A DNA stretch of 24,000 nucleotides from Hadesarchaea archaeon (GTDB taxonomy: Archaea; Hadarchaeota; Hadarchaeia; Hadarchaeales; Hadarchaeaceae), in the NCBI GenBank assembly GCA_029259175.1, contig JAPDJH010000004.1, forward strand, positions 163,645-187,644. The letters run 5' to 3'. Of this stretch, positions 4,559 to 24,000 are shown in pieces. The notes under the pieces are model-generated. The model was not told the DNA's origin. It saw nothing but the letters and a program-made list of their open reading frames with translations, and did not search any database. The translations under genes and the position numbers were made by a program. Positions within the stretch are counted from its first letter, which is position 1. Each line of letters opens with the position of its first letter.

Positions 4559-4636
4559 GGGCCGGTAGCTCAGTCTGGTATGAGCGCTCGCTTCGCAAGC
4601 GAGAGGTCGCGGGTTCAAATCCCGCCCGGTCCACCA
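4559..4636 (+). tRNA. tRNA-Ala (anticodon CGC), genomically encoded CCA
   Basis: Hand-folded cloverleaf. The acceptor stem is GGGCCGG/CCGGTCC and includes the G3:U70 alanine identity pair. The D stem is GCTC/GAGC. The anticodon stem is CTCGC/GCGAG with loop TTCGCAA. The T arm is GCGGG-TTCAAAT-CCCGC, the discriminator is A, and CCA follows. Confidence 0.92.
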
Positions 4637-4812
4637 CTCGAATTGCTCAGCGATCCATCTTGGTCATAGCTGTGAGGATGTCAGAAGCAGCAGATAAGGC
4701 GATAGGAGTCCTCTTCGGAAGTCTGGGTCTCCCGCGCGGCCCCGTTCTAGGAGGGGTGAGGGCTCACTCGGGTGCTCAAGCCAATGAAGAACGGCCTCGG
4801 TGATGCCTGGGG

Positions 4813-5220
4813 TCAGGTCGAAACCCGTTGCCAAGACTCGATGAGATGGGGAACAGTGTCGTAGGTGGGGAGTTCCTCGGGAAGCACCCACCGGGCTTCC
4901 TCGTGTTCCCAGTCGAGACGGATGTGAGGGGTTGGGGTGCGAAAGCGGAAAGGGTGGATGATCCAGATCACGCCTACGGTGTGGTCGTGGAACTCGTAGG
5001 GCTCGCCGCGCTTGACCAGTTCGACGTTGGTGAGGCCCGTTTCCTCACGAATTTCTTTGAAAGCCGTCTGCTCGGGGGTCTCACCGGGCTCCACATAGCC
5101 GGCGACCGCGCCCCACTTTCCACGGTAGGTACGAACGAGCTGGCTTCGCTTCATAATCAGGATCTTACGGTTGTGCTCTAGAAAGCAAGTCACGACGTGT
5201 TTCCGTGGGAGGGTCATCAA
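4813..5220 (-). CDS. NUDIX hydrolase
   Basis: Nudix box GKWGAVAGYVEPGETPEQTAFKEIREETGL (Gx5Ex7REUxEExGU) in a 135-aa ORF. Confidence 0.9.
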   Translation of the reverse strand: MMTLPRKHVVTCFLEHNRKILIMKRSQLVRTYRGKWGAVAGYVEPGETPEQTAFKEIREETGLTNVELVKRGEPYEFHDHTVGVIWIIHPFRFRTPTPHIRLDWEHEEARWVLPEELPTYDTVPHLIESWQRVST

Positions 5221-5257
5221 AAAACAGTTTGTCGATTATGATTTTAATAGAGTTGGT

Positions 5258-5512
5258 GGTGTCCCATATGGGACACCACATCGCCTCTTGATACTTCGAG
5301 CGAAATCAAGCCACAACTATGGGACACTCGACAGAAATCGATCTGTTGTACAGTGTCCCATATGGGACAGTTCTATAGAGTTGGTGTGGCGGAAATAGAT
5401 TTTTTTGAAAAAAACCAATACCTTCCTCGCGCATGTCCCATATGGGACGTTCCGCCAGATCAGTTTCATTAATCAAGACTGTGAAGCACGTTCAGATTGT
5501 CCCATATGGGAC
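5258..5512. repeat. array of four perfect 14-bp palindromes GTCCCATATGGGAC, plus a half-site and a 12-nt direct repeat
   Basis: Exact copies lie at 5261-5274 (extended palindrome GGTGTCCCATATGGGACACC, 5258-5277), 5355-5368, 5435-5448 and 5499-5512. Start-to-start spacing is 94, 80 and 64 bp. A half-site CTATGGGACAC lies near 5317-5327. The 12-mer ATAGAGTTGGTG occurs at 5247-5258 and 5375-5386. A T7-G-A7 tract at 5400-5414 lies between copies 2 and 3. Confidence 0.9.
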
Positions 5513-5557
5513 ATCGCTCAAAGGTATTTTTAACGAATGGAATCAATGAGAAAATGT

Positions 5558-5630
5558 GGGCCCGTGGTCTAGTGGTTATGACGTCACCCTGACACGGTGG
5601 AGGTCGTGGGTTCGAATCCCACCGGGCCCA
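5558..5630 (+). tRNA. tRNA-Val (anticodon GAC)
   Basis: Hand-folded cloverleaf. The acceptor stem is GGGCCCG/CGGGCCC. The anticodon stem is TCACC/GGTGG with loop CTGACAC. The T arm is GTGGG-TTCGAAT-CCCAC and the discriminator is A. CCA is not encoded. A T-run follows. Confidence 0.9.
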
Positions 5631-5835
5631 CCTTTTCCGGCAACCGATTCTTTGAGAACAAGCGTCAGAAGCATCGGCCATTGAATCCCGTCTTTACAAC
5701 TTCTCCTACGTGGTCACTCTGCTGGCATATGGGTTTAGAGAAGAACAAGTTCAATTCCTCCGAGTATGGCGGGAGAAGAGCTGGCAGATCTTCACATCAA
5801 GCTCCGATTCCGACCGGATCTTCGCGCTCATACCG

Positions 5836-6762
5836 TTAAGCAGCGGCTCTCCGCATCAGCTCAAACATCCGGTCGATAGCTGACTTGGTTTTGGCTGCTA
5901 TGGGCTCCTCAACTTTTACCTCGTGCTTTTCGTCGCGCAACGCTAGGTAAAGCTTTTCCAAGTTGTGCTCCTTCATTTGCTCGCACACCGCCGTTTCCAG
6001 CGCCGGTATGAACTCCTTGTCCGGGAGCTCTCGCTTGAGCCGGTAGATCATCCCAACCTCGGTTCCTATGATGAAGCGCTTTGCTGGCGACTCTTGGGCA
6101 TACGATAACATCTGACTGGTGCTACAGATCCGGTCTGCAAGTTTCTGAACTTCCGGGTCGCACTCGGGGTGAACCAAAACCTCGGCATCGGGATGCTGTT
6201 TCTTTTTTAGAAGGATATCTGCTGGTGTGAACATCCGGTGTACATAGCAGTAACCCTGATCCGGAATCGCGATAACTCTTTTTGATGATCTCTGCTGCAC
6301 AAACCACGCCAAGTTCTTATCCGGTCCGAATATGACCGTGTCCTCTTCTAGCGCGTTAACTACCTTCGGAGCGTTCGCCGAGGTGCACACGGCCGTCGCC
6401 TCGGCCTTTGCTTCCGCCAGCGTGTTCACGTACAAGACGACCGGAGCATCTGGATATCGCCGCTTCGCCCGTCTAACTTCTTCAGCCGGAAGCTGCGCCG
6501 CCATGGGGCACCTAGCGGCGGGATCCGGAATCAAAACTTTCTTGTCGGGGTTGAGAACCGCTGCCATCTCAGCCATGAAGTTAACGCCGCAGAAAACCAC
6601 AATCTCAGCATCCAGCTCGGTTGAAGCCCTCGCCAATTCAAGAGAATCGCCCAGAATGTCAGCCAAGTCTTGAATCTCAGGTCTCTGGTAGTTGTGGGCC
6701 AGGATGATGGCGCGCTTCTTTTCTTTCAGGGCCCTTATTTTTTGACTCAACCCCTCGCCCAT
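5836..6762 (-). CDS. nadA: quinolinate synthase NadA
   Basis: [44 protein letters not shown]..., [11 protein letters not shown], and VHPECDPEV are typical NadA blocks. The start is moved to the internal ATG at 6762. The track's 82-aa N-terminal extension is low-complexity and overlaps thi4. Confidence 0.9.
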
Positions 6763-6814
6763 GGTTTCGATAACACCATTATACCCAACCCTATTTAAGC
6801 AGAGAACCGAAAAG

Positions 6815-7609
6815 ATGAGAACGATGCCGGTCTTTGAACCCGTGAGCGAGCGCGAGATCACCCGAGCCATCGTCCAAGAGTTCGCCAAAGAACTCCAGCG
6901 CCACGCGGAAAGCGACGTCATCGTGGTGGGTGGCGGACCAAGTGGCCTCATGGCGGCCCGCGAACTCGCACGCAAGAACATCCGAGTCCTCGTGATCGAA
7001 CGCAACAACTACCTCGGGGGCGGCTTCTGGATAGGCGGCTATCTCATGAACAAGATCACGGTCCGGGCCCCAGGACAGGAGATCCTAGACGAACTAAAAG
7101 TCCCCTACACCGAGTTCTCAAAGGGTCTCTATGTCGCGGACGGGCCGCACGCGTGCTCAAAACTCATTGCTGCCGCCTGCGACGCCGGAGCCAAGATCCT
7201 CAACATGACATTCATCGAGGACGTGGTGTTGCGCGAAAACAACCGCGTTGGCGGCGTGGTCGTGAACTGGACTCCCATCAGCGCCCTGCCACGCGAAATA
7301 ACGTGCGTAGATCCCGTGGGGCTCGAAGCAAAATTCGTTGTGGACGCCACTGGACACGACGCAGCGGTGGTCCGACTGCTGGAGCGGCGCGGTCTGGTTA
7401 AAGTCCCCGGCTACGGCGCGATGTGGCTCGAGCGCTCGGAGGACGCGATAGTCGAACATACTGGCGAGTTCTATCCCGGGTTGGCTGTCACAGGAATGGC
7501 GGTATCTACGGCTTATGGTCTGCCAAGAATGGGGCCGACTTTTGGAGCGATGCTGTTGAGCGGGAAGCGAGTGGCCGAGGTAATCCATGAGAAGCTCAAA
7601 GGCACTTAG
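6815..7609 (+). CDS. thi4: thiazole synthase Thi4 (archaeal type)
   Basis: FAD/NAD-fold motif [19 protein letters not shown], plus [12 protein letters not shown] and [12 protein letters not shown]. The start is taken at the ATG at 6815 (MRTMPVF); 6824 is an alternative. The gene is divergent from nadA with about 52 bp between the starts. Confidence 0.9.
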
Positions 7610-22350: not shown

Positions 22351-23522
22351 CACATTTCCTCCGGTTTTATCGGGCTGATCCGACGCAGGTCTTCTATGAC
22401 TCTTGGAAGGACTTCCAGTGCATGGTCGATTTCTTTTTCTTCTGTGAGCCACGTGAACGTGAAGCGGATTGCCCCATGTGCAATCTCTGGCTTGACCCCA
22501 ATGGCCGACAGCACATGGCTGGGCTCCAGCTTTCTTGTGGAACAGGCCGAACCGGTGGCTACAGCGATTCCGTGCATATCCAGCCGTAGAAGAATGGATT
22601 CTCCTTCGATCCCCTTAAACGAATAATTTACGTTCGCCGGACTGCGTTTTTCTCCTCGCGGACCATGCAGTACAACGTGTGGGATTTTATCCTCGATACC
22701 CTGCATGAGCCTCGCTTGGAGCTTCCGCATATGTGCTATGTGGGCATCAAAGTGGTCAAACGCAAGTTCAACGGCCTTGGCGAATCCCATTATGCCCGGG
22801 ATATTCTCGGTGCCTGGCCTCAGAGCTGAAAGCGAGATGTATCCGTAATCGATCGGCTCGATTCGTGTCCCCTCTCTCACGTAAAGCGCTCCAGCTCCTT
22901 TGGGGCCGTGAATCTTGTGAGCGCTTATGCTCAGCAAATCCACGCCCATGTGGCCAACATCTATCGGAACACGGGCATAACCAGCGGCGGCGTTTACGTG
23001 AAAATACGTGTGCTGATTCCGCTCTTTCACGATCTTGACTATCTCCTCAACGTTTTGTATCGTTCCGATCTCGTCGTTCACGTTTCCGATACTTACCAAG
23101 ATGGTTTCGTTGGTAAGCTTCTCTTCAACGGTTTTTGGATCGACAAATCCTTCACTGTCCACCGGCAGGTAATCCACTTTGAATCCCTCCTTTTCAAGCC
23201 GCTCACACACCCGAAGCACAGAAGGGTTCTCAACCTTGGTAGTTATGATGTGGCGACCGCGATTCCTGTTGGCATACGCTACCCCCCGGAGTGCGATATC
23301 GTTCGCTTCTGTGGCTCCCGAGGTAAACACGATCTCTTCTGGTTTTCCGCCGATGCTGTGCGCAATCACCTCTCGGGCCCGGTCGACCGCCGCGGCGGCG
23401 CGCGTGCCCAGCTCGTACAAGAAAATCGGATGACCAAAATCTTCCTCCATATACTTTCTCATTTCCTGTACAACTTGGGGGTGTGTCCAAGTGGTGCTCC
23501 CGCAATCCAGGTAGGCCTTCAT
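22350..23522 (-). CDS. iscS: class I (IscS/NifS-type) cysteine desulfurase
   Basis: The PLP-lysine block is LSISAHKIHGPKGAGALY and the active-site loop is ATGSACS. TSGATEAND is also present. The start overlaps the stop of the upstream HTH gene in an ATGA. Confidence 0.9.
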   Translation of the reverse strand: MKAYLDCGSTTWTHPQVVQEMRKYMEEDFGHPIFLYELGTRAAAAVDRAREVIAHSIGGKPEEIVFTSGATEANDIALRGVAYANRNRGRHIITTKVENPSVLRVCERLEKEGFKVDYLPVDSEGFVDPKTVEEKLTNETILVSIGNVNDEIGTIQNVEEIVKIVKERNQHTYFHVNAAAGYARVPIDVGHMGVDLLSISAHKIHGPKGAGALYVREGTRIEPIDYGYISLSALRPGTENIPGIMGFAKAVELAFDHFDAHIAHMRKLQARLMQGIEDKIPHVVLHGPRGEKRSPANVNYSFKGIEGESILLRLDMHGIAVATGSACSTRKLEPSHVLSAIGVKPEIAHGAIRFTFTWLTEEKEIDHALEVLPRVIEDLRRISPIKPEEM

Positions 23523-23818
23523 TTCAAGGCCCCTTTCTTCGAAAGCTCGGCACAGATATGACAGTAGATCTGAGAAAATTCCTCGTCTCTGCGTTCCTCC
23601 GCCACTATTTGTTCAACCAGCTCATCTATCACCGACATTATTCCGTATCGGCGCAGGACTGATTGATATCGTGAGCCCCTAAGCCTGTTCAGATACTGGC
23701 TAACCGCTGGCTGGGTGATGCCCAAACGCTCGGCTATCTCGGTTTGCTTCATTCTGTGCTTCTCCGCCAGCTTTTTCACAACAGCTACACGAACGGCCGG
23801 CAGAATCCGCTTGACCAT
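23519..23818 (-). CDS. small HTH transcriptional regulator with C-terminal CxxC (candidate regulator of the isc operon)
   Basis: HTH segment MKQTEIAERLGITQPAVSQYLNRL, with a C-terminal YCHIC. The start is placed at the internal ATG at 23818 (MVKRILPAV...), because a TATA-like box at 23841-23850 abuts the track start at 23839. That box sits about 25-28 nt from 23818, which fits a leaderless mRNA. Confidence 0.65.
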   Translation of the reverse strand: MVKRILPAVRVAVVKKLAEKHRMKQTEIAERLGITQPAVSQYLNRLRGSRYQSVLRRYGIMSVIDELVEQIVAEERRDEEFSQIYCHICAELSKKGALK

Positions 23819-23840
23819 GAGTTCACATTTCGGTCGCATC

Positions 23841-23854
23841 TATAACAACGTTAT
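23841..23854. promoter_or_regulatory. TATAACAACGTTAT box upstream of the HTH-iscS-iscU operon
   Basis: Exact copy of the 14-mer at 9076-9089, in the same orientation relative to the downstream minus-strand gene. Confidence 0.5.
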
Positions 23855-23986
23855 CCTTTCTCTAATAAACCCTTTCTTGGTGATCTCTTCCGCCTGATCT
23901 CGTGGCAATGAACCACTCATTGAGAAAACAGTTCTTCTGGCTGAAAAGTGGAATTTGTTCAGCTCACCTCCGGAATCTGCAGCAAT

Positions 23987-24000
23987 GTCCCATATAGGAC
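23987..24000. repeat. fifth, one-mismatch copy of the 14-bp palindrome (GTCCCATATAGGAC) at the window edge
   Basis: 13/14 match to GTCCCATATGGGAC. It lies about 170 bp upstream of the HTH regulator start. The flanking context beyond 24000 is not visible. Confidence 0.7.

Follow-up and report, generated by a model that had tools for sequence, protein, structure and literature searches.

A 24,000-nt stretch of a Hadesarchaea genome (positions 163645-187644 of contig C2; hereafter the window) carries an array of short identical palindromes, here called array A, which occupies the shared upstream region of a NUDIX hydrolase gene and a tRNA-Val(GAC) gene. The assembly (G000), a metagenome-assembled genome of the Hadarchaeota, comprises 1.3 Mb in 23 contigs and is 91% complete. 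From comparison of sites, genes and predicted structure, we put at roughly 60% the probability that array A is a gene-less, or orphan, array of the cognate site of a small protein with the fold of Cas2, encoded on another contig (C16), and that its copies are likely docking sites beside two promoters. In other words, the protein that would read the array is probably encoded elsewhere in the genome, inside an array of the same palindrome.

The array consists of four exact copies of the 14-mer GTCCCATATGGGAC within about 250 bp of non-coding DNA (5261-5274, 5355-5368, 5435-5448 and 5499-5512), and a copy matching at 13 of 14 positions, GTCCCATATAGGAC, is found at 23987-24000. Allowing up to two mismatches, the window contains five matches against 0.08 expected, and none of 100 shuffles reached five. 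The initial annotation of the window, made from the sequence alone, had described these copies as exceeding chance and as accompanied by a half-site, a duplicated 12-mer and a T7-G-A7 tract, and all of this was confirmed when the positions were re-read (Table 1). Moreover, the consensus can be extended to a 16-mer, TGTCCCATATGGGACA, of a 7-2-7 design, TGTCCCA-TA-TGGGACA, and the half-site reads as a decayed fifth copy of it. By tblastn with a Cas2-like query no Cas2-like protein was found in array A; small open reading frames (ORFs) within the array were rejected, as all frames cross the palindromes and none is conserved; and a search of the region for known RNA families in Rfam returned none but the two tRNAs.

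A scan of the whole genome, as proposed in the initial annotation, found 15 exact copies of GTCCCATATGGGAC and one copy with a single mismatch, distributed over three intergenic arrays and, in one case, inside a gene. Array A accounts for four copies. Array B (C2:187631-187780), located 150-300 bp upstream of an operon formed by a helix-turn-helix (HTH) gene and iscS, holds three copies, of which the 13/14 copy at the end of the window is the degenerate first member, while the exact ones, at C2:187720 and 187767, lie past the window end. The eight copies of array C, seven of them at 6085-6925 and the other at 4658, are on the 7.7-kb contig C16, where the array stops 56 nt short of a tRNA-Val(CAC) gene. 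Array B is a paralogous copy of part of array C, namely the stretch from the Cas2-like gene to tRNA-Val(CAC): the palindromes of the two are identical at 41 of 42 positions, whereas identity falls to only roughly 70% in the aligned first spacer. Both are built of tandemly duplicated units of about 90 bp, and array A has nothing in common with them except the palindromes. The 14-mer is absent from 40 relatives. In addition, strictly defined sites of this kind number only 20 in the 1.3 Mb, all within two families linked to Cas2-like genes. The genic copy is an exact 16-mer in hypE (C9:2487-2502), where it encodes CPIWD in place of the APIWD of Thermococcus HypE; it is partly forced, because the peptide is conserved, but an unusual Cys codon is still required, and it may be either a chance match or a co-opted site.

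The gene bracketed by array C lies at C16:6432-6692 on the minus strand, beside tRNA-Val(CAC). The starting query was a weak Pfam Cas2 match at 26.9 kb of C2, a 79-aa protein, which in tblastn matched C16:6489-6683 (minus), between the array C palindromes at 6457 and 6741. The frame is open for at least 87 codons and retains the family motifs FVLIYDI (including YDI) and LQRSVW. Its predicted structure is a Cas2 fold, with a predicted local distance difference test (pLDDT) score of 86, and the best PDB matches of the model are the Cas2 proteins 2ivy, 3exc, 5zyf and 5g4d. The Pfam scores fall below the cut-offs, with an E-value of 4.5e-4 for PaaX_M and of about 1e-2 for Cas2 (16.5 bits against a cut-off of 23.8). 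The TTTATAA box of the gene is 8 bp from the palindrome 6740-6755, and its C-terminus runs through the palindrome 6457-6470.

This arrangement is found again within the same genome. Two paralogues on C2 are also bracketed by repeated sites, and each bracketed paralogue has a different palindrome of the same 7-2-7 design (Table 1). A fourth paralogue (C8:40583-40846) has no repeated site and no canonical start before its first beta strand, and a fifth copy (C7:7006-7182) contains an internal TAG stop codon; the C16, C8 and C7 copies may be either decaying or users of unusual starts. The Cas2-like family, in which residue D9 is invariant, is present in 34 of 65 genomes of the order, and at about 24 of 30 family loci the gene is flanked by 7-2-7 palindromes, commonly at some 25 nt upstream from the start and across the gene 3' end. 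Sites change with the proteins: all four members of the SGWHY subfamily have a CTACG-type site, and around the nearest homologues (41% identity) the palindrome is TGTC(C/T)(T/C)A-AA-TAGGACA, which in one variant has the half-site TGTCCCA, as in the window. Gene-less arrays also recur. Of 46 family genomes, 17 carry a sister palindrome, GTCCTAAATAGGAC, in 1-12 copies on several contigs, and the reversed pattern used as a control gave one match across all 46. Eight GTCCTAAATAGGAC arrays were examined and none holds a Cas2-like ORF; they sit between ordinary genes, twice directly after the gene of the CCA-adding enzyme. A 106-aa partner gene of the nearest relatives was considered and dismissed, its homologue on C15 having neither a palindrome nor a Cas2-like gene.

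Table 1. Sites, promoter elements and genes of array A, the first site of array B, and the bracketed Cas2-like paralogues (window coordinates unless a contig is given; TATA-like boxes are inferred from sequence)
Feature	Position	Strand	Sequence	Remarks
Site 1	5260..5275		TGTCCCATATGGGACA	Centre of a 24-bp perfect palindrome, 5256-5279; 10 bp from the NUDIX TATA-like box
Site 2	5354..5369		TGTCCCATATGGGACA	
Site 3	5434..5449		TGTCCCATATGGGACG	14-mer core exact, 16-mer 15/16
Site 4	5498..5513		TGTCCCATATGGGACA	11 bp upstream of the tRNA-Val(GAC) TATA-like box
Putative decayed fifth site	5313..5328		TATGGGACA	Right half alone retained; TGTCCCA on the minus strand, 5320-5326
12-mer, copy 1	5247..5258	+	ATAGAGTTGGTG	Overlaps the NUDIX TATA region
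12-mer, copy 2	5375..5386	+	ATAGAGTTGGTG	Just past site 2
T7-G-A7 tract	5400..5414			15 nt, between sites 2 and 3
NUDIX hydrolase gene	4813..5220	-		Divergent from tRNA-Val(GAC)
tRNA-Val(GAC)	5558..5632	+		Downstream of array A
NUDIX TATA-like box	5242..5249	-	TATTAAAA	25-32 nt upstream of the ATG at 5217
tRNA-Val(GAC) TATA-like box	5525..5533	+	TATTTTTAA	33 nt upstream of the tRNA 5' end
Array B, first site	23986..24000			One mismatch; cut by the window end
Cas2-like paralogue	C2:26849-27085		TGACAAA-GG-TTTGTCA	5 local copies
Cas2-like paralogue	C2:15076-15345		CTACGAA-CC-TTCGTAG	5 local copies
Cas2-like paralogue	C16		TGTCCCA-TA-TGGGACA	7 local copies, 14-15 genome-wide

The position of the sites relative to core promoters is the other regular feature of the system. 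The two TATA-like boxes flanking array A would be the promoter of a leaderless NUDIX mRNA and that of tRNA-Val(GAC), respectively. A spacing of 8-11 bp between site and TATA-like box is found at both of them, at the Cas2-like gene and at a tRNA cluster of two other genera (g8 and g4). In this conserved cluster, a tRNA-Ala(GGC) gene with one or two introns at unusual positions is followed by tRNA-Val(GAC). A palindrome of the family type, for example TGTCTAATGTTAGACA, is found in the promoter of the cluster, upstream of the TATA-like box by a few nt, and two g8 genomes have additional arrays upstream of the cluster. In five of 20 other family genomes, such sites are present upstream of tRNA-Val(GAC) at a distance of at most 600 nt; these genomes are related, and the occurrences may represent three or four independent events. 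None is present in the remaining 45 kb or so of the loci, the background in the genome under study being 0.015 per kb. Here, arrays stand at two of the three tRNA-Val genes. For this lineage of sites the proximity to tRNAs is thus probably more than incidental, and may reflect either regulation or a preferred target for new arrays. The link is limited to TGTC-type sites at tRNA-Val and tRNA-Ala promoters: the sites of the other paralogues of this genome are not near tRNAs, and tRNA adjacency as a family-wide rule was discarded, a tRNA lying within 1.5 kb at only two of 32 gene loci. The synteny of the NadA neighbourhood is not kept in the five relatives examined.

Taken as an operator system, these observations suggest the following mechanism. 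A dimer of the C16 Cas2-like protein would bind each 7-2-7 site on double-stranded DNA, and binding at its own gene would give autoregulation. Since the outer sites of array A are located 10-11 bp upstream of the NUDIX and tRNA-Val(GAC) TATA boxes, the bound protein would adjoin the region of the TFB recognition element (BRE) and the TATA box, where it could modulate the recruitment of TFB and TBP at both promoters. Binding by this protein, recognition of the duplex and an effect on transcription are inferences. Two features expected of an operator array are observed: the sites flank the gene of the presumed binder and vary with its paralogues and orthologues, and they stand at core promoters predicted from the sequence. 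The clustered operator of a dimeric factor put forward in the initial annotation would thus be right in kind, the sites bracketing a Cas2-fold gene; the HTH regulator named there as its possible binder is not supported, its orthologues keeping another dyad (see below).

Several points weigh against this interpretation. Cas2 is not known to bind DNA sequence-specifically, and in PaaX repressors the Cas2-like domain is regarded as a dimerisation module, DNA being bound by the winged helix-turn-helix (wHTH) domain. Position 7 of the site is always A, and the central A..T is invariant across families, which may instead reflect recognition of a conserved A-NN-T hairpin loop. Ahead of the first strand, the C16 frame offers no ATG, GTG or TTG, so that the gene may be a recent pseudogene or may use an unusual start, and the proteins that the public collection returned do not include its product. 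The 14-mer is also not exclusive to the Cas2-like system, because the same palindrome is carried by an unrelated element in 11 short metagenome contigs without a Cas2-like ORF; there it occurs in 2-4 copies, of which two surround a hairpin and another is located, in most of the contigs, within a gene of about 220-265 aa, and the copies have long (GTC)n runs and a ribbon-helix-helix-like gene as neighbours. No site is present upstream of tRNA-Val(GAC) in the three genomes of the same genus, so that a role at its promoter, if there is one, would be recent. Finally, covariation of sites with orthologues is weak evidence taken alone, because flanking DNA is co-inherited with the gene; more weight is to be given to the unlinked gene-less arrays that match one paralogue, to the rarity of the sites, to the high identity of sites relative to spacers between arrays B and C, and to the fact that the sites are all that array A has in common with the others.

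A parallel comes from bacteria. A motif-only scan of 185,579 species genomes, with the criterion of two copies 50-80 bp apart, matched one other genome, a Limisphaerales bacterium (OZ260084, a verrucomicrobial metagenome-assembled genome of 7.9 Mb) with 51 GTCCCA-NN-TGGGAC sites in about 17 tandem arrays of periods 60-146 bp. The two best matches to the Cas2-like profile in this genome are PaaX_M-domain proteins whose genes adjoin arrays or are bracketed by sites. The first gene is associated with five sites at an 88-bp period, beginning 7 nt upstream of the start codon; the second has one-mismatch copies about 450 bp either side of its Cas2-like domain, with three matches in 3.1 kb against 0.01 expected. 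Compared with the bacterial PaaX_M domain, the C16 protein is the top scorer of 21 archaeal members (73, the next one 64), a link that is suggestive only. The bacterial case supports the existence of a class, Cas2-like-domain proteins together with interspaced palindromes, rather than a shared mechanism of reading them. Viral contigs were also searched and set aside, the 16-mer occurring there 18 times, always singly, which is about chance level by a rough estimate.

Contig C16 and other loci show further features of this kind. An AAA_14/DUF4143 ATPase gene (C16:4820-5965, minus) lies between direct repeats of about 100 bp (4594-4696 and 6021-6122) that are 78% identical and contain one palindrome each, flanked by an outer stem in which changes are compensated (GTGCGGG..CCCGCAC versus GTGCAGG..CCTGCAC); G+C is 53% in the insert and 62% in the stretch just before it. 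It looks like a cassette that landed inside the array, or one captured between two array units. Between two other palindromes, the segment C16:6188-6396 holds a second perfect 16-bp palindrome, TTTACGATATCGTAAA, and two TTTACGAT half-copies, in letters identical to those encoding the YDI motif of the nearby Cas2-like gene, and may be a remnant of a second copy of that gene. In a like layout around a protein of different fold, the six copies of CTACACACCCCTGTGTAG at C3:183136-183873 enclose a small HTH gene. Moreover, a genuine CRISPR-Cas locus, with Cas1, a canonical Cas2 and a CRISPR array, is present elsewhere in the genome (C1, 214-220 kb), and a one-mismatch CTACGAACCTTCGTAG palindrome is found there at C1:216516, the 3' end of cas1 being about 400 nt away.

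The strongest of the other explanations is a selfish partnership between a protein and the repeats that it spreads. It supposes that the Cas2-like protein nicks or mobilises its own palindrome, which thereby reaches further intergenic positions and expands there through tandem duplication, leaving array A without a host function. Such a process would account for gene-less arrays at scattered loci in many genomes, for the tandem units of about 90 bp in arrays B and C, shared by the Limisphaerales arrays, and for the fact that array A is species-specific and resembles the others in its palindromes only; the ATPase gene between palindrome-bearing direct repeats and the invariant D9, the conserved Asp of Cas2 nucleases, point in the same direction. 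However, each genome has few copies (5-15), the 91%-complete genome yielded no Y1 (HUH) transposase and no PF01797 match, and no mobilising activity of Cas2 alone is known. In addition, the 8-11 bp spacing to the TATA box recurs at several promoters, and perfect sites amid diverging spacers fit selection for binding, even if a recent insertion would look alike. On balance we hold a purely selfish repeat to be unlikely. A very unlikely possibility is that the palindromes act as RNA or single-stranded DNA hairpins, bound or cut by a nuclease of the Cas2/VapD type, relatives of which are reported as RNases or DNases (PMC10491678). Within several arrays the asymmetric central dinucleotides share one orientation, and copy 1 can form a stable 10-bp stem. 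The remaining copies, however, fold weakly (-4 to -5 kcal/mol), no Rfam family matches, and sites 1 and 4, being upstream of the predicted TATA boxes, would be outside the NUDIX and tRNA transcripts. In relatives, where one half-site decays, an arm tolerates changes that the other does not compensate, and one Limisphaerales array holds both central orientations. These features, together with the design of two 7-bp half-sites around a variable dinucleotide, argue for recognition of the duplex.

The two candidates named in the initial annotation fare less well. One of its readings was a replication origin with boxes resembling the archaeal origin recognition box (ORB); this idea, and with it that of a parS-like centromere or SMC loading site, we consider highly improbable. 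The sites are clustered and dyad-symmetric, with a short A/T tract among them, an SMC operon (Pfam SMC_N) ends 0.7 kb upstream, and the cumulative GC-skew minimum of C2 falls in the 185-190 kb bin that contains array B. This minimum is a shallow, broad trough, and no replication gene was seen in its bin. At array A itself, where an inflection had been proposed as a check, there is no contig extremum but a local blip caused by the SMC operon. Both orc1/cdc6 genes (Cdc6_C) are on C4, at 86 kb and 103 kb, none being on C2 or C16, and no ORB-like repeats were seen beside the orc1 genes. Moreover, the flanking gene blocks converge on the array, the 14-mer is absent from the 40 relatives, the A/T-rich DNA amounts to the 15-nt T7GA7 tract instead of a sizeable unwinding element, and a like architecture surrounds small genes at dozens of loci with sequences that differ, also between paralogues. 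As to parS, the single ParB_N gene lies at C1:153 kb, on a contig without copies of the GTCCCATATGGGAC palindrome. The other candidate, the ArsR-type HTH protein encoded at 23519-23839, is scarcely credible as the binder. What favours it is array B, upstream of its operon; this array, however, is a copied piece of array C, and the palindrome family tracks Cas2-like genes. In the orthologues of two relatives from other genera (G004 and G010), the gene start has a shared ATAAC-N3-GTTAT dyad next to it, and a GTCCCA palindrome is absent. As the same dyad is also present in the window at about 23842-23854, directly upstream of the HTH gene, it is the more likely operator of this regulator.

Compared with known systems, the arrangement that we propose for the C16 protein combines traits of several. 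It resembles autoregulated archaeal transcription factors, such as Ss-LrpB of Sulfolobus with its three spaced boxes, in having spaced dyad-symmetric arrays at its own gene, additional sites at other promoters, and sites just upstream of or over the BRE/TATA region; unlike them, the protein that presumably binds lacks an HTH and adopts a Cas2 (ferredoxin-like) fold, many of the arrays are gene-less, and sites also overlap the gene 3' end. The PaaX repressors (wHTH, PaaX_M and PaaX_C; PF20803) have a similar Cas2-like domain, as reflected in the PaaX_M E-value given above, and the Limisphaerales PaaX_M proteins stand beside arrays with a GTCCCA half-site, whereas the archaeal protein consists of the Cas2-like domain alone. 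With Cas2 and VapD the protein shares the fold, the Asp of the first strand and a (V/L)Q-SV(W/F) motif; in contrast to Cas2, its gene has no adjacent Cas1 gene or CRISPR array, and the protein scores below the cut-off of Pfam PF09827. The repeats differ from those of CRISPR arrays, which measure at least 23 nt and are separated by near-constant spacers, being 14-16 bp long with spacers of 33-270 bp that are partly homologous to each other. Finally, repetitive extragenic palindromic (REP) elements or bacterial interspersed mosaic elements (BIMEs) with their REP-associated tyrosine transposases (RAYTs) likewise include a gene flanked by its own short palindromes and gene-less clusters elsewhere; here, by contrast, there is no HUH/Y1 transposase, copies number about 15 instead of hundreds, and they take a regular promoter-adjacent position. 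No paper describing cognate palindromes of stand-alone Cas2 proteins turned up in our search of the literature.

What is new here is the assignment of the window array to a gene on another contig and the presence of three specificities in one genome, along with the recurrent 8-11 bp spacing to TATA boxes at tRNA genes and the bacterial PaaX_M parallel. The analysis also removes a false origin candidate from the genome of an uncultured archaeon and provides, with NUDIX and tRNA-Val(GAC), a concrete and testable pair of promoters. Beyond the binder's own gene, arrays stand at a fixed distance from host TATA boxes, repeatedly those of tRNA genes. If binding is true, Cas2, the structural subunit of the CRISPR integrase, would have relatives that bind DNA sequence-specifically and possess palindromes of their own. 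A bolder version, quite unlikely as a whole, is that sequence-specific recognition of the 7-2-7 palindrome is a property of the Cas2 fold itself, and that protein and repeat form a self-propagating pair which seeds the promoters of essential genes, here those of two tRNA-Val, bacteria doing alike through PaaX_M proteins and GTCCCA sites. If that were the case, the host would become dependent on, or controlled by, the protein, and a Cas1-free Cas2 lineage that reads interspaced palindromic repeats would bear on the origin of the association between CRISPR repeats and Cas2.

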